Source: Trinickia sp. LjRoot230 (lineage in GTDB: Bacteria > Pseudomonadota > Gammaproteobacteria > Burkholderiales > Burkholderiaceae). From it: a stretch of DNA of 24,000 bases. A program made the translations under genes and the position numbers. Each line of letters starts with the position of its first letter. The first letter of the stretch is position 1. The stretch lies in assembly GCF_964253315.1 (NCBI RefSeq), contig NZ_CAXUQX020000001.1:1899571-1923570 (forward strand). The letters run 5' to 3'. Of this stretch, positions 4,197 through 17,573 are shown piece by piece. Below the pieces are notes generated by a model. It was not told the DNA's origin. It worked only from the letters and a program-made list of their open reading frames with translations, and made no database searches.

Positions 4197-4922
4197 TCAC
4201 GACCAAAAGTCCGACACCTCGATATTGCGCAAATCGAACACGAGTACCTCTGCGTCGTGGCCGTTGGCGAAATCGAGGCTGCGCTCGCCGCGCACCCGCA
4301 TGCCATCGCCCTCGGACAATGTGTGCCCATTCACCATCACGCTGCCGCGCGCGACATGCACATAAGCGAAGCGCTCCGCAGCAAGGGTGAGGCTCGCGCG
4401 CTCGTCACCGTCGAATAGCCCCGCATAAACGCGGGCATCCTGCCGCAATTCCAGTGACTGATCGGCGCCGTCCGGCGACATAATGATCCGCAATTTGCCG
4501 CGTTTTTCTGCTGGCGAAAACATCTGTTGCTGATAGCGCGGTGTGGCGCCGCTCTTCTCGGTAGCGAGCCAGATCTGCAGAAAATGCACGGTCTCGCTGC
4601 TCGAATGGTTGAACTCGCTGTGCACGACGCCCGTACCCGCGCTCATCAATTGAACGTCGCCGGGTGTGATGACCGAACCCGTGCCCATCGAATCCTTGTG
4701 TTCGAGCGCGCCTTCCAGCACGTACGAAAAAATCTCGACGTCCCGATGCGGATGCTTGCCGAAGCCACGACCCGGCATGACCCGGTCGTCGTTGATGACG
4801 AGCAGGTCGGAAAACCCCATCTGCTTCGGATCGTAGTAATTCGCAAACGAAAACGTATGGCGGGAGTTGAGCCAGCCGTGTTCCGCATGACCTCGTTCAT
4901 CAGCGCGTCTGATTTCAAACAT
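4197..4922 (-). CDS. Pirin-family protein (YhhW/quercetin 2,3-dioxygenase-like bicupin)
   Basis: MFEIRRADERGHAEHGWLNSRHTFSFANYYDP...HPHRDVEIFSYVLEGALEHKDS...VQLMSAGTGVVHSEFN are the canonical pirin cupin motifs. The start at 4922 has GGAGG 6 nt upstream. The 24-codon extension in the ORF track is unlikely to be real. Confidence 0.9.
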   Translation of the reverse strand: MFEIRRADERGHAEHGWLNSRHTFSFANYYDPKQMGFSDLLVINDDRVMPGRGFGKHPHRDVEIFSYVLEGALEHKDSMGTGSVITPGDVQLMSAGTGVVHSEFNHSSSETVHFLQIWLATEKSGATPRYQQQMFSPAEKRGKLRIIMSPDGADQSLELRQDARVYAGLFDGDERASLTLAAERFAYVHVARGSVMVNGHTLSEGDGMRVRGERSLDFANGHDAEVLVFDLRNIEVSDFWS

Positions 4923-5065
4923 ATCGACCTCCGGTTGTTGGGTTGAGGCCGCGAGCCGTTCGCTGCCATTCACCATTCGCTCAGTGTAAGTCAACTTAAA
5001 CGGCTTAAATCATGGGAGAATGCGAATCACTGTCTCAAATTAGTGGACATTCAGTAAGCACTCCT

Positions 5066-5956
5066 ATGCAACTCGACGATCTGCGAATCTTTGTTGTTAC
5101 GGTCGAAGCGCGTAATTTCACCGCCGCGGCGGATCGTCTCCAATTGTCGAAGCAGTTCGTAAGCCGCCGCGTAATGGCACTCGAGGCCGGTCTCGGTGTG
5201 CGCTTGCTCGTGCGCAATACGCGCAAGCTCACGGTAACCGACCTGGGCCAGGAGCTTTACGAGCGGGCGAAGCGAATCCTGGCCGAGGTGACGGATGCCG
5301 AGCAGGCCATGTCGCTGCGACGCTCGCAGCCGCGGGGCTTGCTGCGCGTCAGCGCGCCGATGTCGTTCGGCACGACGCATTTGTCGCCGCTCGTTGCCGA
5401 CTTCATGCGTGGCAACTCGGAGGTGCGTGTCGATATCGAACTGAGTGACCGGGTCGTCGATTTGATTGGCGACGGCTTCGACATGGCGCTGCGCATCGGA
5501 ACGCTGTCGGATTCGACGCTGATCGCACAAAAGCTTGCCGAGATCCGGATGGTGACCTGTTGTTCGCCGGCTTATCGCGCAGCGCGCCGGCCGCCGGCGA
5601 CACCGGAGGACCTGATTCGGCACCCGTGTTTGCTCTACGGGCAGGAAGGGCGCACGGGTTGGGAGTTCGTCATCGACGGCGTAAAGCGCGCTATCGAAGT
5701 GCGGGGCCCGCTGCGTGCCAATAATGGTGAAGTGATTCGTGATGCCGCCATCGCGGGGTTGGGCGTAGCGCTACTGCCCGAATTCATCGTTTCGGCTGCG
5801 ATTGCGAATGGGGAATTGATCGAATTGCTCGATGTATTCGCGGCGCCTGCGCTCGCGCTTTATGCCGTGTGCCCGCAACATCGCGAAAGCTCGCTCACTA
5901 TCCGCGCGTTCACGCAATTCTTGCGACAGCGCTTCGCGCGGGCGCTAGGCATTTGA
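5066..5956 (+). CDS. LysR-family transcriptional regulator
   Basis: MQLDDLRIFVVTVEARNFTAAADRLQLSKQFVSRRVMALEAGLGVRLLVRNTRKLTVT is a typical LTTR helix-turn-helix, followed by a substrate-binding domain. It is divergent from pirin, a classic pairing. The start is chosen at the M that gives the canonical LTTR N-terminus. Confidence 0.9.
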   Translation: MQLDDLRIFVVTVEARNFTAAADRLQLSKQFVSRRVMALEAGLGVRLLVRNTRKLTVTDLGQELYERAKRILAEVTDAEQAMSLRRSQPRGLLRVSAPMSFGTTHLSPLVADFMRGNSEVRVDIELSDRVVDLIGDGFDMALRIGTLSDSTLIAQKLAEIRMVTCCSPAYRAARRPPATPEDLIRHPCLLYGQEGRTGWEFVIDGVKRAIEVRGPLRANNGEVIRDAAIAGLGVALLPEFIVSAAIANGELIELLDVFAAPALALYAVCPQHRESSLTIRAFTQFLRQRFARALGI

Positions 5957-6074
5957 TGCGTTGCGTGGGAAGCGTTGCTTGGGGCAATACCTTGCCGGCA
6001 AAGTCGAGCGACGTTGCCGGCGTGGTATCAAGGCACGAGAGACGCTTCGGGCGTCGGTGCATCTATCAGGACAC

Positions 6075-6287
6075 TCAGTACATCTTCTTCGGCGGTTGCG
6101 AGCGGCGAACCTGCTTGCGCAACCGGGCCACTGCGGCGGCTTTCTTGCGCTTGCGCTCGGCGGTGGGCTTTTCGTAGCTCATCCGGGCGCGAAGCTCTTT
6201 CAGGAGACCAGTGCTTTCAATAGCGCGCCGAAAGCGGCGGAGTGCAACTTCGAGCGGTTCATTCAGTTTAGGCGTAACGGTTGTCAA
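6075..6287 (-). CDS. rpsU: 30S ribosomal protein S21 (bS21), standalone copy with TTG start
   Basis: (L/M)[69 protein letters not shown] is 70 aa, the canonical S21 length and motifs. The TTG at 6285-6287 (complement) is preceded by AAGGA 6 nt upstream. The gene is not linked to dnaG or rpoD. Confidence 0.85.
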
Positions 6288-6710
6288 GTCGTTCCTTGGT
6301 TGGGACTCCAGCGGCGTCGTGCTAAGCGCTTTTGAGCGCATCAACTCGCCGCCCAGGCGCATGAGTCATTCATCAGTCAAGGACAGACGCGCCAAGTGTT
6401 ATATCTGTCGATGATATCGTGCCCCGTTTCCATGAGCCGTAGCCGACGGGTTGGGCCATATCGGCCTTGCAAACGGCCTGCCAACACAATCTATCGGCGA
6501 AAAAGCTCGAGCGCGCGCGGAAAAAAGAAGGGGAGCGAGGGGCTCCGGCCGGGCATCAGGGCGATGCCGATGCGATCGTTCCGCGGCAAAGGGCAAGTCA
6601 CTATACACGTTATTGCCCGGTTGACCCGACGTTTTTTCATTAGTAGCGCTCGAAAAGCGAGCCGGATCATGGCTTTCCGCGTTATTTCGAGAGGCAGCGC
6701 AACAAGCTGC

Positions 6711-6739
6711 TTGACAGTCCGAACGGTGCCGGATACTAT
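6711..6739 (+). promoter_or_regulatory. Sigma70-type promoter for the cold-shock gene
   Basis: TTGACA (6711-6716), an exactly 17-nt spacer, then TACTAT (6734-6739). This predicts a roughly 150-nt 5' leader before the csp ATG at 6897. That is comparable to the long thermosensing leader of E. coli cspA. Confidence 0.55.
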
Positions 6740-6896
6740 TCGAATCTGAAGTTTTCAAGAAGTCCGATTGCTGCTCATCAGTTCACCGCTTGTCGCGCTG
6801 TATTCGTTGTCCTCTCCCTGCTTGATACTTTGACTCTGCACCCGCGAAATTTTTCGCTGGGCGCGTATATGTTTATTTTTTGCTTTAAGGATTTTT

Positions 6897-7100
6897 ATGG
6901 ATACGGGTATCGTCAAGTGGTTCAACGACAGCAAGGGCTTCGGCTTTATTACGCCTGACGCAGGCGGCGACGATTTGTTCGCGCATTTTTCGGAGATTCG
7001 TGGCGAAGGCTTCAAAACGCTCGCCGAGAACCAACGCGTGCAGTACGAAACCAAGCGTGGCCCCAAGGGCCTGCAGGCCGCGAATATCACGGCGCTGTAA
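6897..7100 (+). CDS. Cold-shock protein, CspA family (67 aa)
   Basis: [34 protein letters not shown] carries the RNP1 (KGFGFI) and RNP2 (LFAHF) motifs. AAGGA lies 6 nt upstream of the ATG. Confidence 0.95.
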
Positions 7101-7138
7101 TTTGAAGTGCCTGCGCCGGCCTCAGCGCCGGTGCCGTT

Positions 7139-7175
7139 GCACGGCATCGAATGCTCGATGTCGTGCGCTACTTTT
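7139..7175 (+). terminator. Candidate intrinsic terminator of csp
   Basis: GCACGgCATCGA-atgc-TCGATGtCGTGC forms a 12-bp stem (one G-U pair) with a 4-nt loop. It is followed by gctaCTTTT, about 40 nt downstream of the csp stop. Confidence 0.55.
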
Positions 7176-7282
7176 CCAGCTTCGATTCCTTCGGCCTCGG
7201 TTTACTACGGCTCTTCAATCTGCAGGTCAGTCGCCCTGCTGCTGGTCAATCATTCCACGGATAAACGCTTTTCACGTGCGCA

Positions 7283-7558
7283 ATGCAGCGTGAGGCAAGT
7301 TCCGTTCAAAACAAAATTAAAATGCGTAATTCACGTTCACACTCACATGTTCAGCACTACCGCGGTTATGCGGTACAGTCTTCGGCGCATCGTTTGCCCG
7401 ACGGGTATTTTTCCTCGAACCTGATGATCGAGCGATCGACCCTACCGGTCTCGTCGGATCGCTACGATTTTTATGCGCTCGATTATTTTTCGAACGAAGC
7501 CGAAGCAATCGATTTTTCGAAGCGCTGGGCGCGTCATTGGATCGACTCGCGCGGTTGA
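7283..7558 (+). CDS. Small hypothetical protein (78-91 aa; start ambiguous, 7283 or 7322)
   Basis: The ORF encodes ...HYRGYAVQSSAHRLPDGYFSSNLMIERS...YDFYALDYFSNEAEAIDFSKRWARHWIDSRG. I could not identify an SD sequence. The YRG-aromatic N-motif and the F-x-EA...ID C-motif recur in the ORF at 7888..8181. Confidence 0.5.
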   Translation: MQREASSVQNKIKMRNSRSHSHVQHYRGYAVQSSAHRLPDGYFSSNLMIERSTLPVSSDRYDFYALDYFSNEAEAIDFSKRWARHWIDSRG

Positions 7559-7589
7559 TCGGCTCGGTCACGCGTATGCCAGGCGATAC

Positions 7590-7607
7590 CCGCAAGCTTG
7601 CTTGCGG
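7590..7607. terminator. Short hairpin between convergent small genes
   Basis: CCGCAAG-cttg-CTTGCGG (7-bp stem, 4-nt loop) lies between the plus-strand stop at 7558 and the minus-strand stop at 7608. There is no U-tract. Confidence 0.3.
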
Positions 7608-7928
7608 TCAGAGGAAAGCCAAAAGCGCAAGCTGATGCCGCGTTTCGCCGCCTTTTACGAGCGAATAGAGACACGCCTGCTTGCGTTCTTGCTGCGTCCA
7701 TCCGTTGTCGTCGATGAACCGGTCCCAGCGCGCATCTTCGAGCGAGATAGGCCGCCCACGCGTGCGCGCGAACGATTGCAGCATTCGGCTGGCCGATCGG
7801 CGCATCAACGTGCCGCTCTCGTCGAGAACATACGATTCGTGTCCGATGCGGATGACGAGATAGTGCGGATGGATGGGCGTGTTCACGTCATTGCACATCC
7901 CATAGACTGTCGCCGCCGGTGCTGGCAT
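7608..7928 (-). CDS. Small hypothetical protein (96-106 aa; start 7898 or 7928), second gene of a two-gene operon
   Basis: High GC3 in frame. Sequence: MCNDVNTPIHPHYLVIRIGHESYVLDESGTLMRRSASRMLQSFARTRGRPISLEDARWDRFIDDNGWTQQERKQACLYSLV. The start overlaps the upstream gene's end by 11 nt (ATGTGCAATGA) or 41 nt. Confidence 0.6.
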   Translation of the reverse strand: MPAPAATVYGMCNDVNTPIHPHYLVIRIGHESYVLDESGTLMRRSASRMLQSFARTRGRPISLEDARWDRFIDDNGWTQQERKQACLYSLVKGGETRHQLALLAFL

Positions 7929-8181
7929 CGATCAATTGTTCGGCGTAGAGCGTCGAGGCACGTCGTGCGTCGCCGGTATTCTCGAACGGCTTGGGCGAGG
8001 CCAGCCGAAACACGCGGCTGCGGGCCGCAAGCGTGCCTGATGCGAGCTCGCTGATTCTGACGGCTGCGTCGAAGCCTGCCTCGTAATCGCGCGCGAGTCC
8101 CGGCTGGGTTGCCCGGTGGGGAAAGACGAGGGGATAGATCTCAAAGCCGCGATACAGGCGAAGGTTGGCGGTGATTGTCAT
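7888..8181 (-). CDS. Small hypothetical protein (97 aa), first gene of a two-gene operon
   Basis: This is the 3'-terminal part of the 404-aa track ORF 7888..9102. The ATG at 8181 has GGAG 7 nt upstream. Sequence: MTITANLRLYRGFEIYPLVFPHRATQPG...FENTGDARRASTLYAEQLIDAS. GC3 is high. Confidence 0.6.
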   Translation of the reverse strand: MTITANLRLYRGFEIYPLVFPHRATQPGLARDYEAGFDAAVRISELASGTLAARSRVFRLASPKPFENTGDARRASTLYAEQLIDASTGGDSLWDVQ

Positions 8182-8326
8182 GGACTGCTCCGTGGCCGCG
8201 CTCGCGCGCGGCGTAATGATGTAGGTGGCGTAGCGCAACGGATCAATGGACACGCTGCCGGGTTGATTGCGCAGCCGCGATGAACTGGGCGCTGCTTTTG
8301 CGTTCGCTGGCCGATAAAAAATGAAG

Positions 8327-8350
8327 AAGGCGCACCTTTTGGTGCGCCTT
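8327..8350 (-). terminator. Orphan terminator-like hairpin in a divergent intergenic region
   Basis: AAGGCGCACC-tttt-GGTGCGCCTT is a perfect 10-bp GC-rich stem. Read on the minus strand it is followed by cttcaTTTTTTat. No annotated gene reads into it from either side. Confidence 0.35.
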
Positions 8351-8580
8351 TCGTGCGCTAGGGGTAGAGCACTCGGCTTTTCGCCCGATCGTACGCGCTT
8401 TCCTCTATTTGTACAGTTAAATTTCCGCGCACGTCTGCCGCGACGGTCTATCTGGCGCCGAGCGGCAGAGGCCCCCAAACGGGGAGCCGGGCCGACGTGC
8501 GATAATGCCGGATCACTTCTTTTCCATACGGCGCGCGGACATGGCCTGATCCAAAGCTTGGCGCCGGGCACGCATTCCCC

Positions 8581-9762
8581 GTGAAAAATTTCGTTGTCCC
8601 AATCGATGCGCTCGCCTCGTTCGACGAGATCGTAGACGTGCGCACGCCGCTCGAGTTCGCGGAAGACCACATCCCCGGCGCAATCAATGCGCCCGTGCTC
8701 AGCAACGAGGAACGGGTGATCGTCGGCACGCTTTACAAGCGTTCGCCATTCGAAGCAACGCGCATCGGCGCCGCGATGGTCGCGCGCAATATCGCACATC
8801 ACCTCGACACCTGCTTTGCCGATCGGCCCCGCAACTGGCGCCCGCTCATTTACTGCTGGCGAGGCGGCAAGCGCTCGGGTTCGATGACGGCCTGGTTCAA
8901 CATGGTCGGCTGGCAGGCTCGCCAGCTCGACGGCGGGTATAAGGCGTATCGGCATCACGTGCTCGATCAACTGGAGCATCTCGCGCCGCAGTTGACGTAT
9001 ATCGCGCTGACGGGCCATACCGGAACGGGCAAAACCCGCTTGCTGCAGGCACTCGCCGCAGCCGGCGCCCAGGTACTCGATCTGGAAGCGCTCGCGCTGC
9101 ATCGTGGCTCGCTGTTGGGCGCATTACCCGATTCGCCGCAGCCGACCCAAAAGGCGTTCGACACTGCATTGGCCACGGCGCTCTCGGCAATGCAGTTGGA
9201 TCGTCCCGTGTTCATCGAGGCGGAAAGCCGCCGTATCGGCAAGATCACTGTCCCGACTTCATTGCTCGACGCGTTTCGTGCCGGCCGTTGCGTGCGCGTG
9301 AGCGCGCCGTTGCCGATGCGTGTGAAGTTTTTGCTCGAAGACTACGCGCATCTTTTCGATACGCCACAACATTTCAAGGATCAACTGGCGCGATTGATCG
9401 GGTTGCAAAGCCGCCAGACCGTCGAGCGCTGGCATACGCTGATCGATGCGAACGAGCGGACGCAACTGTTTACGGAACTCGTCGAAGCGCATTACGATCC
9501 TGCCTACGCGCGTAGCAGCGAGCGCTCGTTTGGCCGAATCGACCATGCGATGCAGTTTTCGTTTGACCCATGCGCGTGCGTGGCCAACCGCATCGACCAG
9601 GCGCGCGAACTCCTCGCTCAACTCGAAGCAAACGGCATGATGTCCATTGCTGCTCGCGCCATACCAGGTGCGCCGAGCACGGCATCTGCCGCACCGACGA
9701 ACCAATCGAGCGCGCAACGCAACGGACGGCATGGCGCACCGGCTGGCATTGCGGATAGCTGA
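8581..9762 (+). CDS. selU: tRNA 2-selenouridine synthase (SelU/MnmH/YbbB)
   Basis: The N-terminal rhodanese domain (IVDVRTPLEFAEDHIPGAINAPVL, active-site loop YCWRGGKRS) is followed by the P-loop LTGHTGTGKT, which is the SelU architecture. GTG start. A roughly 40-aa low-complexity C-terminal tail is present. Confidence 0.9.
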   Translation: MKNFVVPIDALASFDEIVDVRTPLEFAEDHIPGAINAPVLSNEERVIVGTLYKRSPFEATRIGAAMVARNIAHHLDTCFADRPRNWRPLIYCWRGGKRSGSMTAWFNMVGWQARQLDGGYKAYRHHVLDQLEHLAPQLTYIALTGHTGTGKTRLLQALAAAGAQVLDLEALALHRGSLLGALPDSPQPTQKAFDTALATALSAMQLDRPVFIEAESRRIGKITVPTSLLDAFRAGRCVRVSAPLPMRVKFLLEDYAHLFDTPQHFKDQLARLIGLQSRQTVERWHTLIDANERTQLFTELVEAHYDPAYARSSERSFGRIDHAMQFSFDPCACVANRIDQARELLAQLEANGMMSIAARAIPGAPSTASAAPTNQSSAQRNGRHGAPAGIADS

Positions 9763-9828
9763 ACCGAATCGCGCGAGATCAGCGACACAAACCCTGTACG
9801 ACAAAACCAAGCGCACGCCTACCGGACC

Positions 9829-10899
9829 ATGGAATCATTTGTTCAAACCCGCCGCCCGGCGGCATCGCCCATCGCCGTTGCAGTTTTTGTGCTGATTGCG
9901 GTGGCCGGGCTCTTTTACGTCAAGTGGTCGCCGTACTACGCGCGCCTCTTTGTCGCCGCGGGCACCCATTCGATCGGACATTCGATCCTCAGCGGCACGG
10001 CTTCGACACCGCCCGCCGCATCATGGCAAGCGGCGCTGCACTACGCGAGCACCTATGGTCGTGCGATTTGGCAAGCGATGGTGCTCGGCTTGCTGCTCGG
10101 CTCGGCTGTGCAGACGCTACTGCCCGCGCATTGGATTGCGCGCGTACTCGGGGGAGCGGGGTTGCGCAGTGTCGCAGCCGGTGGCGTGCTTGCCCTTCCA
10201 GGAATGATGTGCACTTGTTGTGCCGCGCCCGTCGTGGTGGGGCTGCGCAAGCGCCAGGCGTCGCAAGGCGCTGCCGTGGCATTTTGGCTCGGCAATTCCG
10301 TGCTCAATCCGGCCACGCTGGTGTTCATGGGGTTCGTGCTCGGCTGGCATTGGACCGCATTGCGCCTGGTGTTAGGTGTGCTGCTGGTGTTCGGTGGCGG
10401 GTGGCTCGTAGATGCGACGGCGAGCGCCGCCGAACGCGCGTCCGCGCGAGCGCAACTGCAATCGCTGGAGATAGCTGGCGAGTCGCCGCAGGGCAACGCG
10501 TTCGCCCGCTGGCTCAAGCTGCTTGCGCAGATGACCGTTCGGCTCGTGCCGGAATACATCGTGCTCGTATTGCTGCTGGGTGCGGCGCGCGCCTGGCTTT
10601 TCCCGCATGTCGGCCCCGAGGTCGACAACGCGATCAGTTGGATCGTCGCATTCGCCGCGGCTGGTACGCTGTTCGTCATTCCGACCGCGGGCGAGGTGCC
10701 GATCGTTCAGACGATGCTTTCGTTCGGTGTGGCGGCAGGCCCTGCCGCGGCGCTCATGATGACGTTGCCGCCCATCAGTGTTCCGTCGCTCGTGATGACT
10801 GCGCGCGCGTTGGGTACGCGCGTGGTGGTCATGATGCTGCTGATGGTGTTGGCCACGGGAATCATGGCGGGCTGCATCGCGGCGGCGTTGCACTTATGA
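9829..10899 (+). CDS. Polytopic inner-membrane permease, COG0701/ArsP-like (DUF318) family, with an MCTCC cysteine motif
   Basis: 356-aa ORF with about 8-10 hydrophobic spans. LPGMMCTCCAAPVVVGL sits inside a TM segment, resembling the vicinal-Cys (CxC) motif of ArsP-type permeases. The gene lies 66 nt after selU and 43 nt before selD on the same strand. Confidence 0.75.
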   Translation: MESFVQTRRPAASPIAVAVFVLIAVAGLFYVKWSPYYARLFVAAGTHSIGHSILSGTASTPPAASWQAALHYASTYGRAIWQAMVLGLLLGSAVQTLLPAHWIARVLGGAGLRSVAAGGVLALPGMMCTCCAAPVVVGLRKRQASQGAAVAFWLGNSVLNPATLVFMGFVLGWHWTALRLVLGVLLVFGGGWLVDATASAAERASARAQLQSLEIAGESPQGNAFARWLKLLAQMTVRLVPEYIVLVLLLGAARAWLFPHVGPEVDNAISWIVAFAAAGTLFVIPTAGEVPIVQTMLSFGVAAGPAAALMMTLPPISVPSLVMTARALGTRVVVMMLLMVLATGIMAGCIAAALHL

Positions 10900-10942
10900 G
10901 TGCTTTGCGGCTTTTTTTCGCGCGTTCTTTGGAGACACTGCG

Positions 10943-12025
10943 ATGACATCGGTTTCGACTTCGACTTCGACTTCGACGACAGCTGCCGCGGTGCCGCGTT
11001 TGACTGAGCTTTCCCATGGCGGCGGGTGTGGTTGCAAGATCGCGCCGGGCGTGCTGGCCGAGTTGCTCAAGCGCACGGTGCCAATGCCGGCTTTCGCGGA
11101 TCTGCTCGTCGGCTCCGATACGGCCGATGACGCCGCAGTCTATCGGCTCAACGACGAGCAGGCCATTGTCGCGACGACTGACTTCTTTATGCCGATTGTC
11201 GACGACCCGTACGACTTCGGCCGCATCGCCGCAACCAACGCGCTCTCCGATATCTATGCGATGGGCGGCAAGCCGCTGTTCGCGCTCGCGATCGTTGGCA
11301 TGCCGATTAACGTGCTGCCGCGCGAGACCATCGCGAGTGTGTTGCGCGGCGGCGAAGCAATCTGTGCAGAAGCCGGCATACCTGTGGCGGGCGGGCATTC
11401 GATCGACTCGGTCGAGCCGATCTATGGGCTTGCCGCGATCGGCGTCGTGCACCCGCAGCATATCGCGCGCAATGCGAGCGCGCATGAAGGCGATCTGCTC
11501 GTGCTGGGTAAGCCGCTTGGTGTCGGCGTATTGTCGGCTGCTCTTAAGAAGGGGCAACTCGATGCTCGAGGATATGCGGCAATGATTGCCGCGACTACGC
11601 GGCTGAACCGGCCTGGCCCCGCGCTGGCCGCGCTCGATGGCGTCCATGCCATGACGGATGTGACGGGCTTCGGTGTGCTCGGGCACCTGTTGGAGCTATG
11701 CCGTGGTGCCCAACTTGCTGCACGCGTCGACTTCTCTGCGCTGCCTTGGCTGGAAGGCGTGATCGAACTGGCGCAGCGCGGCATGATCACGGGCGCGTCG
11801 GCTCGCAACTGGGCTGCCTATGGTGCCGATGTCACGCTCGCACCAGCGCTGCCGCCGTTTGCACAGGCATTGCTGACCGATCCGCAGACATCGGGCGGTC
11901 TGCTCGTGTCCTGTGCGGCGCACGCGGTGGGCGAGGTGCTTGCCTGTATGAAAGCAGGCGGCTTCGACGAAGCCGCAGTCATTGGTACGCTCGTGCAGGG
12001 CGCGCCGCATGTGGTCGTTGCCTGA
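10943..12025 (+). CDS. selD: Selenide, water dikinase (selenophosphate synthetase), Cys-type
   Basis: SHGGGCGCKIAPGVL is the glycine-rich N-terminal loop with the catalytic Cys in place of Sec. DDAAVY, TTDFF and the AIR-synthase-like fold motifs follow. GGAG lies 8 nt upstream of the ATG. Confidence 0.95.
   Translation: MTSVSTSTSTSTTAAAVPRLTELSHGGGCGCKIAPGVLAELLKRTVPMPAFADLLVGSDTADDAAVYRLNDEQAIVATTDFFMPIVDDPYDFGRIAATNALSDIYAMGGKPLFALAIVGMPINVLPRETIASVLRGGEAICAEAGIPVAGGHSIDSVEPIYGLAAIGVVHPQHIARNASAHEGDLLVLGKPLGVGVLSAALKKGQLDARGYAAMIAATTRLNRPGPALAALDGVHAMTDVTGFGVLGHLLELCRGAQLAARVDFSALPWLEGVIELAQRGMITGASARNWAAYGADVTLAPALPPFAQALLTDPQTSGGLLVSCAAHAVGEVLACMKAGGFDEAAVIGTLVQGAPHVVVA
10955..10978 (+). 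repeat. Hexanucleotide tandem repeat (TCGACT)x3 plus TCGACG inside the selD 5' end
   Basis: tcgact tcgact tcgact tcgacg encodes (ST)4 at SelD residues 5-12, upstream of the catalytic loop. Confidence 0.9.
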
Positions 12026-12050: not shown

Positions 12051-12947
12051 TTAGGACTCCGAAGTAACGCAACCGACGCACGCGAGACGCACAGCGAGGA
12101 AATCGATCAATGTGCGCACGCGGCGCGGGATCGTACGCCCTGAGAGCCAAACGAGGTGCATCGGCGCCGGTGCGGGCTCGAATGCATCGAGCACAGTCAC
12201 GACCGCCCCGGAATCGAGCAGCGACTGCACTTGAAAGATGGGCGCGCGTCCGATGCCCGCACCGGCGAGCGCAGCCTGGTTGCAGGCCATGGCGCTCGGC
12301 GACCTGAAGCGGCCGGTCACATCGACGGAGCCGCCGGCACGGTTGAATGTCCATGTCTCGCGCTTTGTGTCCTGGCGCAGGATGCACTCGTGCGTAGCAA
12401 GGTCGGACGGATGAGCGGGCCAGCCGTGTAACTCGAAGTAGTGAGGCGCACCGAAAACCACACGTCGCAATGCGCCGATCGGCTTGGCTCGCAAGTTCGA
12501 ATCGGGCAGGCGCCCCAGCCTGATAGCAATGTCGATGTCGTGATGCGCGAGGTCCACATGTCGCTCGTCGAGCAGCAATTCCACTCGAATGTTCGCATGG
12601 GCTTGCAAGAACTGCGCGATGATCGGTGCGACGAAATCGGCACCGAAAGTGGTCGGTGCTCCGACGCGAATGCTGCCGCGCAGCTCCTTGGCGAGATCTG
12701 CAACTTCCTCCCGCGCCGTTCGTATCGCATGGACGGCAGGGCGGATTTTCGCCGCGAATTTCAGGCATGCCGCAGTGGGCTCGACGCGGCGCGTCGTACG
12801 ATGAAAGAGCGTCGCGTTCAGATCGCCTTCGATTGCCGCAAGGGTGCGGCTCACCGATTGCAATGTCCGCCCCAACGATTTCGCCGCGGCAGTGAGACTG
12901 CCGTCGTCGATGATGGCCAGCAATACTTCATATTCGTCTCGGCTCAC
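12051..12947 (-). CDS. LysR-family transcriptional regulator
   Basis: YEVLLAIIDDGSLTAAAKSLGRTLQSVSRTLAAIEGDLNATLFHRTTRRVEPT is the helix-turn-helix, followed by an LTTR effector domain. The gene is convergent with selD (25-nt gap) and divergent from the glcG-like gene. Confidence 0.9.
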   Translation of the reverse strand: MSRDEYEVLLAIIDDGSLTAAAKSLGRTLQSVSRTLAAIEGDLNATLFHRTTRRVEPTAACLKFAAKIRPAVHAIRTAREEVADLAKELRGSIRVGAPTTFGADFVAPIIAQFLQAHANIRVELLLDERHVDLAHHDIDIAIRLGRLPDSNLRAKPIGALRRVVFGAPHYFELHGWPAHPSDLATHECILRQDTKRETWTFNRAGGSVDVTGRFRSPSAMACNQAALAGAGIGRAPIFQVQSLLDSGAVVTVLDAFEPAPAPMHLVWLSGRTIPRRVRTLIDFLAVRLACVGCVTSES

Positions 12948-13555: not shown

Positions 13556-15340
13556 TCAGGCCGGCAATGCGGTCGGCGTTGCTGCGCGCACTCTTGCGAG
13601 CGTGTCTGCGAGATAGGACTCGCGCGCTGCACGCCGCTTGATTTTTCCGCTCGATGTCTTCGGGATGGTGCCTGGCTCGATGAAGACAATGTCGAACAGG
13701 CTTAGCTCATATTCATCGAAAATGGCGCGGCGAAGGTGCGCGGCTAGCTCGGCAGTATCGACATTGCGCCGGCTCGCACGTTCGATCTCCTGTACGAGTA
13801 CGACCCTTTCCTCGCCGTGGGGCCCGTCAACGGAAAAAGCCGCGTTGCTGCCGGCGCGCGCGGCAGGGCTTGCCTGCTCGGCGATGCGCTCGATGTCTTG
13901 CGGATAATAGTTGCGCCCACGCACGATGATGACGTCCTTCAGCCGGCCGACGACGAACAGCTCGTTGTCGCGCATCACGCCGAGATCGCCGGTGCGCAAA
14001 TAGCGAGTGCGAGTTTCGTCGCCCTCGATATGCGCATGAAACGTGTCGCGAGACGCCGCTTCGTTCTCCCAATAGCGCTCGGGCACGTGTGAGCCGGTTA
14101 CCCAGATTTCGCCGACCATGCCGTGCGGCAGCGCTTGCCGTGTGTGTGGCGCGACGATGGCGATCGACTCGCCGGCCAATGCGTGGCCGCATCCGACGAG
14201 CCGCGAGTTGCCGTCGGGCAGCGTGGGCGCCACGAGCCGTCCGCCGGCCAACGCGGCCTTGTCGGCGCTAATGACGACGGTGGCAGCAGCCGGGTCTTTG
14301 CCCGAGATCATCAGCGTGGCTTCCGCCATGCCGTAGCACGGGTACATCGCGGTAGCAGACAAACCGAGTGCGGCGAATCGCGCTGAGAACGTCTCGACGG
14401 TGTTCGCCCTAACGGGCTCGCCGCTGTTGAATGCCACCTCCCAACAGGACAGATCGACCTCGCAGGCGCGAATTTTTTCGAACGCCTTGATGCACAGGTC
14501 ATAGGCGTAATTGGGGCCGCCGCTGACCTGCGCTCGGTATTCGCTGATCGCGCGCATCCATAGCGTCGGGTCGCGCGCGAAGTCGCCCGGCGCCATCAGC
14601 ACCGAATGTCCACCCATGTACAGCGGTTGAAGGATGTTTCCGATAAGGCCCATGTCATGGTAAAAGGGCGCCCATCCAACATAAATCACCCCGGGACAGC
14701 TGCGTAACGCATCGCACTGCATCGCGAGATTGGACAATACGTTCGCTTGTCGGACGACGACCCCCTTCGGCAGTGAGGTCGAGCCCGACGTGTATTGGAT
14801 GAACGCGGTGTCGTGCGCAGGATGAAAAGCACCGCCGGTGCCGCGCTCGTCGTCGACGAACGGCGTCCAATCGTTCAGCGGCCAGATCGCCATGTCTGGC
14901 GTCGCGCCATCGAGTTCATCGGCGATCGAGCGCGGCACGTCCTCCGATACCAGACAAACCGTCGCGCCGCAATCGCGCGCAATCGCCGTCGTTGCGTCGC
15001 GCAGGCGCTTGTTGCGCAACGACGGAATAGGAACGGGCACCACGCCCGCGTATTGACACGCGAAGAACGCGACGATGAACGTGAGACCGGACCCGAGCAT
15101 CAGCATGACCCGCGCACCGGGACGCGTGGCCGCGGCGAGCGCGCTGCCGAGCCCGATAGCGGCGCGATCGAGTTCGCGATAGCTGATGCTATCGACGGCT
15201 TGTCCGCGCACGAGGAACGTATACGCCGTCGCATCGGGTTTCACGCTTGCCCAGTGGCGCAGCGTTTGCGCGAGCGTCGAAACGGCACCTGCGTGCCAGG
15301 TCGGGTCGCGATCGAAAGCAAGGCGCAGTGTCATCGTCAT
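13556..15340 (-). CDS. Fatty acyl-AMP ligase (FAAL; FadD32-like adenylating enzyme)
   Basis: 594-aa ORF. IQYTSGSTSLPKGVVVRQANVLSN (A3 motif), YLRTGDLG and GRLKDVIIVRGRNYYPQDIE (the FAAL-typical A8 region), and PKTSSGKIKR (A10) are all present. It is the last gene of the four-gene cassette. Confidence 0.85.
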   Translation of the reverse strand: MTMTLRLAFDRDPTWHAGAVSTLAQTLRHWASVKPDATAYTFLVRGQAVDSISYRELDRAAIGLGSALAAATRPGARVMLMLGSGLTFIVAFFACQYAGVVPVPIPSLRNKRLRDATTAIARDCGATVCLVSEDVPRSIADELDGATPDMAIWPLNDWTPFVDDERGTGGAFHPAHDTAFIQYTSGSTSLPKGVVVRQANVLSNLAMQCDALRSCPGVIYVGWAPFYHDMGLIGNILQPLYMGGHSVLMAPGDFARDPTLWMRAISEYRAQVSGGPNYAYDLCIKAFEKIRACEVDLSCWEVAFNSGEPVRANTVETFSARFAALGLSATAMYPCYGMAEATLMISGKDPAAATVVISADKAALAGGRLVAPTLPDGNSRLVGCGHALAGESIAIVAPHTRQALPHGMVGEIWVTGSHVPERYWENEAASRDTFHAHIEGDETRTRYLRTGDLGVMRDNELFVVGRLKDVIIVRGRNYYPQDIERIAEQASPAARAGSNAAFSVDGPHGEERVVLVQEIERASRRNVDTAELAAHLRRAIFDEYELSLFDIVFIEPGTIPKTSSGKIKRRAARESYLADTLARVRAATPTALPA

Positions 15341-15421
15341 CGAGAATCGACTCGTGAATCAATGGAGTTAGTTCGTCATGCAAAGCGGTGCAATGCAATG
15401 CGGATCTGGCGTTTCGCCATC

Positions 15422-16315
15422 TCACCATCGCGCATCGTGCTTCCAACGGCCGGTGATCGGGCGTAGCGCCAATCGCAGCAGGCCGATTTTTCCCATATGA
15501 AAGCCGATGGCCGATTGTTTGAGATAGCGTTCATAGCGCGACGTGACCGCTTCACCCACGAGTTGCACCGCTTGCTCTCTTCGCTTCGCTAAATTGCGCG
15601 CCCAGCACTCGAGTGTGCGGGCGTAATGCAAGCGATGATTGACGACACTCGTGATCTCGAACAGGTCTTGCGTGCTTTTGACGATTTCTTCGAATGTAGG
15701 CAGGTCTGCCGATGGAAAAATTTCGTTATTGATGAAGGCACTGGCTTCGCTGCGTTTCATCGTTCCGTATGCAATCGTTTGCAGCGACAGGCGCCCGTCG
15801 GGCGTGAGCCAATCGCGGCAGCGACGAAAAAAATCGGCGTAGAGCGCGATTTTTTGGGTGTCGCTGTCCTCGGGGGAGGCGAAGTGCTCGAATGCGCCGA
15901 CCGAGACGATGGAGTCATAGCGCGCCTCGGGTTCGTGATCGGCCCAATGCTCGAGTCGCACGTCGGCGTGAGGCAAGCCAAGCGCGCTGACATAGTCGAA
16001 TTGATCGTGGCTTAATGTGAGCCCCGTGGCTCTCGCGGCTCGCCGTTCGAGGCACGCGAGCTGTAACAGCGCGCCCCATCCGCAGCCAATGTCGAGTACG
16101 TTCGATCCTTCTTGAACATGCGCCGCGTCGAGATGCAAGCGGATCTTCGCGAGCTGTGCGTCACGCAGTTCGCCGCCGGCACTCGCGTCGGGCCAGAGTG
16201 CACACGAGTAGGACAGCGTATCGTCGAGCCAGAGCGCGTAGAAGGCACGGCCTACGTCGTAGTGATAGGCGATCGCGGAGGCCGAACCCCCATAGTTCGT
16301 TGCGGCGGTACTCAT
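15422..16315 (-). CDS. Cyclopropane-fatty-acyl/mycolic-acid synthase-family SAM-dependent methyltransferase (297 aa)
   Basis: HYDVGRAFYALWLD, SAM motif VLDIGCGWGALL, the catalytic-region motif VSVGAFEHF and C-terminal YERYLKQSAIGFHMGKIGLLRL are present. The size class matches CmaA/MmaA (about 290 aa) rather than E. coli Cfa (382 aa). The start overlaps the ACP stop in ATGA. Confidence 0.85.
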   Translation of the reverse strand: MSTAATNYGGSASAIAYHYDVGRAFYALWLDDTLSYSCALWPDASAGGELRDAQLAKIRLHLDAAHVQEGSNVLDIGCGWGALLQLACLERRAARATGLTLSHDQFDYVSALGLPHADVRLEHWADHEPEARYDSIVSVGAFEHFASPEDSDTQKIALYADFFRRCRDWLTPDGRLSLQTIAYGTMKRSEASAFINNEIFPSADLPTFEEIVKSTQDLFEITSVVNHRLHYARTLECWARNLAKRREQAVQLVGEAVTSRYERYLKQSAIGFHMGKIGLLRLALRPITGRWKHDARW

Positions 16316-16602
16316 GCAGCGTGCCTTTGCGGCAGGCGGCGCACAACGTCCGCGGCGAGCTCGGCCAGCGTTGTATTTTCGAATATCACCGACGGCGGGA
16401 TTTCCTGGCGGACATATACCTCGAGATCGAGCAGCATCGAAGTCGTGATGGCTGAGTCGAGCCCGAGGCTGTCGAGCTCGGCATGTTCGTCGAGTTCAGC
16501 CTCGGAGAAGTTGAGCACCTGCGCGAGATAAGCCTTGCACCACGCGACGATCATCGCGGCATCGACGGTTGCGGGGCTGCCTTGGGCGAGTTCTGTGTGC
16601 AT
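16312..16602 (-). CDS. Stand-alone acyl carrier protein (96 aa)
   Basis: The ATG at 16602 has AAGGAAA upstream. The phosphopantetheine attachment motif is LDSLGLDSAITTSM. The upstream part of track ORF 16312..16743 overlaps the desaturase 3' end and was rejected. Confidence 0.8.
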   Translation of the reverse strand: MHTELAQGSPATVDAAMIVAWCKAYLAQVLNFSEAELDEHAELDSLGLDSAITTSMLLDLEVYVRQEIPPSVIFENTTLAELAADVVRRLPQRHAA

Positions 16603-16613
16603 GTTGGCTTTCC

Positions 16614-17573
16614 TTATCGAGTGGCGAGCGGCCGTCGTTCGAGCGCTTGCATTTGGGCTTTCGTGGGCACGTTGACCTCCCGCGCAAGCCCGGTCAGCGC
16701 GAGCAGACAGATGAACCAATAGCCGGGATCGATGCGATACCACGCAAGGCCGAATGACGCCGACGCGGGGAACGCATGATGGTTGTTATGCCACGGCTCG
16801 CCGAAAACGAACGGCGCCAATAACGCGATGTTGCGGCTTTCGTCACGCGCGCGAAATCGTCGCGTACCGAGCATATGGCCAAACGAGTTGAGGGCCCAAA
16901 TCGAGTGTTCGAGAATGAACATTCGCACAACGCCACCCCACAGCGCACCCGTTAGGAGTCCTATCCATTCACCTCGCAGCGCCGCACACAAGATGGCCGG
17001 CAAAATGACTCCCGCGATCGCGCAGTAGTAGTAGCGCCGATTGATGGCAACCAGCAGGCGTTCGCGCACGAGATCCGGCGCGTACTGAACCACATTGGGA
17101 TACGGGTGCCCCGCCATCCAGGTGAAATGGGCATGAGCCAGCCCTCGCAGGCGCCCGCGCAGCGAGGCGCCATGCAAATTCGGCGAGTGGACGTCGCCGT
17201 CTCGATCGGTTAATTCGTGATGCCGCCGATGCATTGCCACCCATGAGATGACGGGGCCTTGACCGGCCATCTGCCCGACGATCGCCAACGCTGCGGCCAA
17301 CACGCGATTTGCTTTGAACGAGCGATGCGTGAAGAGCCGATGGTAGCCAACCGATACGCTGAGCCCCGTCGCAGCCCACATGAGCAAGAACACTACGGCT
17401 TCTTGCATGCCGACGTGAAACGAACGTGCCGTGGCGAATGCAACCAGCGTTACCGGAATCGGCAGAATGTCGAAAATGACGAAGTGTTTGCGCTGCAGCC
17501 GGCGCAACGCGGGATCGTCGATAACCCGCCTGGCTCCAGGGCTCATAGCCGGTCCGCCGGTGCAGCCTTGCAT
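16614..17573 (-). CDS. Membrane fatty-acid desaturase, Delta9/SCD-DesC-DesA3 family
   Basis: Three His boxes are present: GYHRLFTHRSF, WVAMHRRHHELTDRDGDVHSP and GEPWHNNHHAFP. There are two pairs of hydrophobic spans. GGAGG lies 4 nt upstream of the ATG at 17573. It is the first gene of the cassette. Confidence 0.85.
   Translation of the reverse strand: MQGCTGGPAMSPGARRVIDDPALRRLQRKHFVIFDILPIPVTLVAFATARSFHVGMQEAVVFLLMWAATGLSVSVGYHRLFTHRSFKANRVLAAALAIVGQMAGQGPVISWVAMHRRHHELTDRDGDVHSPNLHGASLRGRLRGLAHAHFTWMAGHPYPNVVQYAPDLVRERLLVAINRRYYYCAIAGVILPAILCAALRGEWIGLLTGALWGGVVRMFILEHSIWALNSFGHMLGTRRFRARDESRNIALLAPFVFGEPWHNNHHAFPASASFGLAWYRIDPGYWFICLLALTGLAREVNVPTKAQMQALERRPLATR

Follow-up and report, generated by a model that had tools for sequence, protein, structure and literature searches.

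CxCC permeases of the YraQ/UPF0718 branch as candidate selenium transporters: a gene between selU and selD in Trinickia and its relatives

How bacteria specifically take up trace selenium is an open question, for which the membrane protein YedE is still a prediction from comparative genomics. Reviews of 2022 and May 2026 state that a selenium transport system of high affinity and specificity is yet to be identified in prokaryotes (PMC9312934, PMC13188914). The question arises in a concrete form in a 24-kb stretch of the genome of Trinickia sp. LjRoot230 (24,000 nucleotides, here called the window), in which the gene of a polytopic permease is placed between selU/mnmH, encoding the tRNA 2-selenouridine(34) synthase, and selD, encoding selenide, water dikinase. 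What does a membrane protein do between these two genes of selenium metabolism? The permease is a member of the CxCC-bearing YraQ/UPF0718 branch of the ArsP_1 family, and relatives of it are found beside selenium genes in many different gene arrangements. That the branch has a functional connection to selenium use via selenophosphate, and represents a candidate selenium transporter, is well supported as a prediction from gene neighbourhoods. The ArsP_1 and YraQ/UPF0718 families were already known; new is the proposed link to selenium nutrition. The features of the trio in the window are as follows.

8581..9762 (+): selU/mnmH, tRNA 2-selenouridine(34) synthase, 393 aa, GTG start, first gene of the trio
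9640-9762 (+): Ala/Pro/Ser-rich tail of SelU, SelU residues about 351-393
9763..9828 (+): spacer between selU and the permease gene, 66 nt
9829..10899 (+): polytopic permease, CxCC (YraQ/UPF0718) subfamily of ArsP_1, 356 aa
10198..10236 (+): CxCC motif PGMMCTCCAAPVV, permease residues 124-136
10681..10701 (+): PTAGEVP motif, permease residues 285-291, at the break of the second discontinuous helix
10900..10942 (+): spacer between the permease gene and selD, 43 nt
10943..12025 (+): selD, selenide, water dikinase, 360 aa

The identity of the two outer genes is clear from profile matches. The product of the first is assigned to MnmH/SelU by the NCBIfam model NF008752 (525 bits, cut-off 266) and contains Rhodanese and P-loop domains in Pfam, while the product of the third matches SelD (NF002098, 544 bits, cut-off 299), contains the Pfam domains AIRS and AIRS_C and has a Cys-type N-terminal motif, GGGCGCK. 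The open reading frame (ORF) coordinates bear out the original prediction that all three genes point in the same direction with gaps of 66 and 43 nt. Neither a promoter-like nor a terminator-like site was found in the 66-nt spacer, and the 43-nt spacer holds a single weak 5-bp stem with a T-run at 10906-10922. No convincing terminator is present between the genes of the trio, and such sites are fewer across the region than in shuffled sequence. A promoter scan of the window revealed no sigma-70-like site upstream of the trio, a result that says little either way. Because the genes are co-directional, separated by short gaps and not interrupted by a convincing terminator, selU, the permease gene and selD are most likely transcribed together. 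As a side observation, the C-terminal tail of SelU, approximately 40 residues rich in Ala, Pro and Ser, extends past the match to the MnmH profile (residues 2-350).

The permease itself matches the Pfam family ArsP_1 (PF03773) with 85.8 bits against a gathering threshold of 32.3 (E 3.8e-24), which agrees with its earlier description as a polytopic, ArsP-type protein of 356 aa with a CxCC arrangement. More than 3670 homologues exist, and a scan of 1.84 billion cluster representatives with the permease yielded 136 clusters at E <= 1e-30 and 1840 clusters at E <= 1e-3. In an alignment of 41 full-length representatives with 29-64% identity, the residues C128, C131, T286 and E289 are invariant, T129 and C130 are conserved at >=90%, and in many members of the subfamily the three cysteines of the motif are the only cysteines of the protein. 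Judged from this sequence conservation, the CxCC motif defines a permease subfamily and is more than a product of chance.

The third cysteine sets the subfamily apart. A canonical ArsP_1 member from a Cupriavidus plasmid, approximately 26% identical to the permease, reads TPFCSCSTIPV at the position where the permease has PGMMCTCCAAPV. Since its CSC aligns with C128-T-C130, C128 and C130 correspond to the CxC pair of the first repeat that is found family-wide, whereas C131 stands in place of a Ser of the canonical member and, by this alignment, is specific to the subfamily. Hence, the vicinal cysteine pair mentioned in the original prediction does not strictly apply; the motif is the CxC of the family plus a third cysteine. 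The glutamate of the second repeat is conserved as well, with E289 of the permease aligning with the E of RAETLIP in the canonical member.

An AlphaFold2 model built with the permease alignment (pLDDT 92.2, pTM 0.91) contains two discontinuous helices. The first (helix 112-121, loop 122-128, helix 129-141) holds the CxCC motif and the second (helix 269-281, loop 282-288, helix 289-298) the PTAGE residues. The motif had been placed inside a transmembrane helix; this needs correction, as the model predicts its position at a helix break and not within a continuous helix. When the N-terminal half was aligned to the C-terminal half by hhalign, the CxCC and PTAGEVP loops came into register, though weakly (E 0.081), which suggests an internal repeat. 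A sequence search of the PDB with the permease returned no match even at E <= 10, and Foldseek of the model against the PDB gave nothing at E <= 1e-3, the best match being the TRAP transporter SiaQM (E 0.064, TM 0.33). Therefore, no solved homologue guides the mechanism. A DsbD/CcdA-like transfer of thiol-disulfide equivalents across the membrane was another idea, given up since cysteine is missing from the second repeat.

Among the named relatives, YraQ of E. coli (b3151, UPF0718) is 49% identical to the permease over approximately 98% of its length (residues 6-351), has the same LPGMMCTCCAAPV and VIPTA(A/G)E(I/V)PI motifs and is of comparable size (346 aa vs 356 aa). The similarity to YraQ together with the motifs [ML]MC[TS]CC[AST][AS]P and PT[AG][AG]E[IV]P places the permease in the YraQ/UPF0718 CxCC subfamily, an assignment made by identity and motifs. 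The gene yraQ belongs to the E. coli core genome (5425/5426 complete genomes) and has the RefSeq label 'yraQ: permease'; its product is listed as 'uncharacterized protein' (PMC2731931), and no reported function was found for YraQ, whose name appears in only 10 papers.

The link to selenium is carried by the recurrence of sel genes around members of this subfamily. In a scan with one genome per GTDB species, at least 593 species genomes encode a motif-bearing relative, and tblastn searches for SelU, SelD, SelA and SelB covered the best 80 loci; a locus was counted as linked if selU, selD, selA or selB was found within 5 kb of the permease gene. This was the case for 65 of the 76 loci with >=1.3 kb on both sides, or for 69/80 if the loci L012 and L048, which are cut by contig ends, are counted. 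A scan of metagenomes, for which the consensus-first alignment served as query to spread the search across clades, resulted in 27 linked loci among 47 with usable flanks. By a rough estimate, approximately 1% or less would be expected by chance. Thus, the check suggested in the original prediction, namely whether the CxCC subfamily co-localises with selD/selU, gave a strongly positive answer. Altogether, 14 distinct arrangements of sel genes and permease occur among the linked loci, which belong to at least 5 bacterial families and 2 phyla (Beta-, Alpha- and Gammaproteobacteria, Paenibacillaceae/Bacillaceae and Lactobacillaceae). The main arrangements are given below with P for the permease gene, followed by the selenium island of Ligilactobacillus salivarius; the rest of the 14 deviate from the main ones only slightly.

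selU>P: Burkholderia cepacia complex (4-nt overlap), Caballeronia, Janthinobacterium
selD>selU>P: Paraburkholderia xenovorans group
selU>P>selD: the window, Trinickia, P. phosphatilytica
selD< then selU>P> (divergent): loci L143, L158, L172
selU<selD< then P> (divergent): Paenibacillus, including P. durus
selU< then P> (divergent): Peribacillus deserti
selA>selB>selD< then P> (divergent): Methylocella, Hyphomicrobium facile
selD>selB<selA< then P> (divergent): Dyella jiangningensis-type gammaproteobacterium
selA>selB>selD>P (co-directional): loci L152, L167
Selenium island of Ligilactobacillus salivarius: locus L184, plasmid NZ_LT604075.1, 156-180 kb

The coupling can be very close, as in a Burkholderia locus (L001) where selU (4874-6004) and the permease gene (6001-7059) overlap by 4 nt. 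In Methylocella, fdhE and a formate dehydrogenase operon come after the permease gene. Wherever selU is absent from a linked locus, the partner of the permease is selD/selAB, therefore the link appears to be one of selenium supply to SelD and not of SelU chemistry. For the same reason the idea that the permease exports a by-product of SelU was rejected, since selU is missing from the loci of alpha- and gammaproteobacteria and from those with a co-directional selABD-permease order. A further linked case comes from the Lactobacillales. On a megaplasmid of L. salivarius, a CxCC member with 37% identity is situated at the edge of a selenium island of approximately 25 kb, in which genes for an aldo-keto reductase, the CxCC permease, a YeeE/TsuA-like protein, TusA, a double rhodanese and prdA/prdB/prdD are followed by TauE, an APC permease, yedF, DUF3343, selB, a class-V aminotransferase, selA, prdC, selD, yedE and yedF. 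The rhodanese-like neighbour in this island was tried as a SelU candidate and rejected, as its best match is a 3-mercaptopyruvate sulfurtransferase and it remains below the cut-off.

Other constant neighbours were scarce. Greedy clustering of the neighbouring ORFs suffered from shadow-ORF artefacts in high-GC DNA, and besides selU and selD the top clusters were limited to closely related loci. The only further recurrent partner that could be named is the gene in fdhE position of the alpha-type loci.

Taken together, we consider it moderately probable that the permease is a secondary transporter that provides SelD with a thiol-reactive form of selenium in the cytoplasm. Such a transporter would bring the selenium into the cytoplasm, where SelD would make selenophosphate that is then used by SelU; the species carried could be selenite-derived Se(II)/selenotrisulfide, selenide or selenopersulfide. 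The two halves of the protein, which perhaps originate from an ancient duplication, would each contribute one broken helix to a central substrate site, with the thiols of C128-x-C130-C131 from the first break and the T286/E289 loop from the second. Selenium might be held transiently via Se-S bonds and let go on the cytoplasmic side. Selenium as substrate, the inward direction and the Se-S relay are our inferences; for direction and chemistry we rely on the operon logic of genes for trace-element utilisation, among which importers are usual, and on the known reactivity of selenite with thiols. A more far-reaching version can be put forward only tentatively: the CxCC permeases of the YraQ/UPF0718 type, that of E. 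coli included, may represent a dedicated high-affinity bacterial selenium importer, in which a thiol triad at the broken helix takes selenotrisulfide or selenopersulfide and passes it to the SelD pathway, parallel to or upstream of YedE/YedF.

Several observations weigh against a selenium-specific role. The linked loci are mostly from Burkholderiaceae, which makes independent events look more numerous in the raw counts than they are, and the diversity of arrangements and taxa is a stronger argument than the raw proportions. Moreover, the subfamily is not exclusive to selenium loci. In E. coli, yraQ (b3151; L180 4911-5951, NZ_OL790696.1) lies between yraR and dolP/diaA and not beside sel genes; selD is present elsewhere in that genome, away from yraQ. 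P. phymatum and P. diazotrophica are further unlinked cases. Members from Solimicrobium (S. silvestre), Pseudonocardia (P. sediminis) and a marine clade do not adjoin sel genes either, the same applies to a Sulfobacillus clade, in which the permease gene has a divergent LysR gene, and another clade has an adjacent M20 peptidase gene and no sel genes nearby. Among the best 80 species loci, 11 from Burkholderiales have no sel gene beside the permease gene. Four of these are annotated, and none of the four has selU; an ABC-2 transporter follows downstream, as in the selU-linked Burkholderia locus, and in three of them an aldo-keto reductase gene is found directly upstream of the permease gene. 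In the actinobacterium Modestobacter (L090, 8001-9161 and 15320-17161), a distance of 6 kb that includes housekeeping genes (dnaJ, hrcA, hemN-like) separates the permease gene from selB and selA, which is weak evidence and was not counted as linked. Hence, the original proposal of a selenium transporter stands as a prediction by co-localisation, to which must be added that the subfamily also occurs outside selenium loci.

How well do other explanations account for the same data? The first is export: the permease could remove excess selenide, other forms of selenium or another thiophilic metal(loid), and so guard the cell while SelD and SelU are working. The named ArsP_1 relatives indeed speak for it, because ArsP, the Cu/Zn efflux transporter SO_0444 and SaoE are all described as exporters; ArsP is classified in TCDB as an organo-arsenical exporter family (2.A.119), as quoted in bioRxiv 10.1101/2022.07.06.499078. 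The NCBIfam models nearest to the permease are those of two efflux transporters, SO_0444 (Cu/Zn) and SaoE, the CxC pair of the exporter relatives is kept in the permease, and stand-alone copies such as yraQ of E. coli would fit a housekeeping detoxification. However, the permease is a member of neither efflux family, since it reaches only 52.8 bits with the SO_0444 model (NF033936, cut-off 300), confined to residues 84-209, and 45.4 bits with the SaoE model (NF040736, cut-off 325). Scores so far below the cut-offs mean that the function of SO_0444 or SaoE is not transferable. The genomic context differs as well: while the permease shares the Pfam family and the CxC pair with ArsP, it lies in a context of selenium utilisation, and neither ars, czc or mer genes nor a metal-sensing regulator are annotated beside it in the window or in the annotated related loci. 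An association with biosynthetic genes as close as that seen in the 4-nt selU overlap or in the co-directional selABD-permease order is unusual for a detoxification pump, and the prevalence of importers in trace-element operons likewise points the other way. Overall, an exporter seems unlikely to us. The family nevertheless informs on the motif, as the SO_0444 members include some selenoproteins that have UxC where CxC would stand (PMC13188914; bioRxiv 10.1101/2022.07.06.499078), therefore this position is a chalcogen- or metal-handling site.

The second explanation, which we rate as somewhat less probable still, assumes a general transporter of chalcogen or sulfur species (thiosulfate, persulfide/polysulfide or sulfide), for which selenium would be incidental and the neighbourhood of selU and selD would follow from the shared chemistry of sulfur and selenium. 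In L. salivarius, the permease is flanked by a homologue of the thiosulfate transporter TsuA/YeeE, by TusA and by a double-rhodanese sulfurtransferase, and with such sulfur-trafficking neighbours the substrate could be a sulfur species. SelU itself is a rhodanese-domain enzyme acting on 2-thiouridine, and the many subfamily members away from selenium genes would also suit a sulfur carrier. Yet the recurrent partners selD, selA and selB are specific for selenium, in the selU-less loci too, and sulfur-trafficking neighbours are annotated only at the L. salivarius locus and at none of the other annotated loci; a search for YeeE and TusA homologues was negative for the window and for every other locus covered by it. 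The third explanation, an adjacency without functional meaning in which an unrelated housekeeping transporter is carried along with selU in Burkholderiaceae by synteny, draws on the prevalence of one family among the linked loci, the unlinked orthologue of E. coli and the 11/80 loci in which the permease gene stands without selU (the four annotated ones sharing the downstream ABC-2 transporter with selU-linked Burkholderia), but we regard it as highly improbable, because 14 arrangements with varied orientations and partners in unrelated lineages are beyond what one inherited ancestral adjacency can explain.

If the permease supplies selenium to SelD, as we prefer to think, the obvious comparison is YedE/FdhT with YedF, the published candidate selenium transporter. 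The type of evidence is shared, since YedE also is a membrane protein encoded beside selD, selA and selB, and in the L. salivarius island the CxCC permease resides together with yedE and yedF. The E. coli genome likewise has yedE and yedF along with yraQ. The two families are nevertheless unrelated (PF04143 for YedE vs PF03773 for the permease), and the YedE models TIGR04112 and NF033796 gave no match to the permease at E <= 0.01. YedE, YedF, DUF3343 and LysR_Se were defined as accessory genes of selenium utilisation by gene neighbourhood, and YedE is reported from Bacteroidetes, Firmicutes, Spirochaetes, Synergistetes and Delta/Epsilonproteobacteria (Lin et al. 2015, PMC5322559). Recurrent co-localisation with sel genes in distant organisms, the argument used in that study, is found for the CxCC permease as well. 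Unlike the taxa with YedE, those with a linked permease are for the most part aerobic soil genera (Burkholderiaceae, Paenibacillus, Methylocella, Hyphomicrobium, Dyella). In full-text literature searches, no paper turned up that connects PF03773, UPF0718, YraQ or ArsP with the use of selenium; the earlier statement that the family lies outside the published candidates (YedE/YedF, LysR_Se, DUF3343) thus holds for the literature searched.

The CxCC permeases would therefore be a second, unrelated candidate family for selenium transport, with neighbourhood evidence of the same kind as that for YedE. For yraQ, a conserved y-gene of E. coli, this is a first functional hypothesis, and the selenium prediction is directly testable in that organism. 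If it is true, the scaffold of an ArsP-type metalloid permease has been turned to nutritional use of selenium with one added cysteine, and hundreds of genomes in which the gene is now labelled just 'permease' could be better annotated.

The surroundings of the trio in the window are otherwise not related to selenium. By tblastn, neither selA and selB nor YedE, YedF, DUF3343, YeeE and TusA were found in the window, and the only tRNA is a tRNA-Leu with no tRNA-Sec, in line with the earlier statement that selA, selB, selC and yedE/F are missing there. An Rfam scan of the whole window matched this tRNA-Leu only and gave no riboswitch or SECIS-like element. Among the flanking genes are a fatty-acid modification cluster and those for two LysR regulators, a cold-shock protein, an HbpS-like protein, PanE, glycerate kinase, trigger factor and ClpP. 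Two features on the minus strand are given here.

12051-12947 (-): LysR-family regulator, converging on selD
13556-17573 (-): lipid cluster of an AMP-binding (fatty acyl-AMP ligase-like) enzyme, a cyclopropane-fatty-acyl synthase-like methyltransferase and a fatty-acid desaturase

The LysR gene at 12051-12947 was considered as part of the unit and rejected, because no match above 45% identity exists in any related locus. Burkholderia has a different LysR gene close to the permease gene, upstream of selU, and another LysR gene adjoins the permease gene in the Sulfobacillus clade. The approximately 1.5 kb upstream of selU (window 7100-8580) contain no confidently assigned gene; a strong terminator-like hairpin is present there on the minus strand at 8350-8327, and a possible small ORF is seen at the 3' end of the 7888-9102 (-) reading frame.

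Some gene families were encountered repeatedly near the permease. An aldo-keto reductase is encoded near it in selU-less Paraburkholderia (L014, L018 and L020, upstream), in Burkholderia (L001 1-862) and in L. salivarius (L181 7154-8002), which may be a coincidence in view of a large family with 25-30% identity. A Peptidase_M20 gene is situated upstream of LysR-selU-permease in the Burkholderia locus (L001 2272-3693, minus strand), and another one directly upstream of the permease gene and co-directional with it (L094 6477-7886, plus strand) in an unrelated clade with no sel genes nearby. The composition of the 13556-17573 cluster on the minus strand of the window suggests a lipid-modification operon unrelated to the permease finding.

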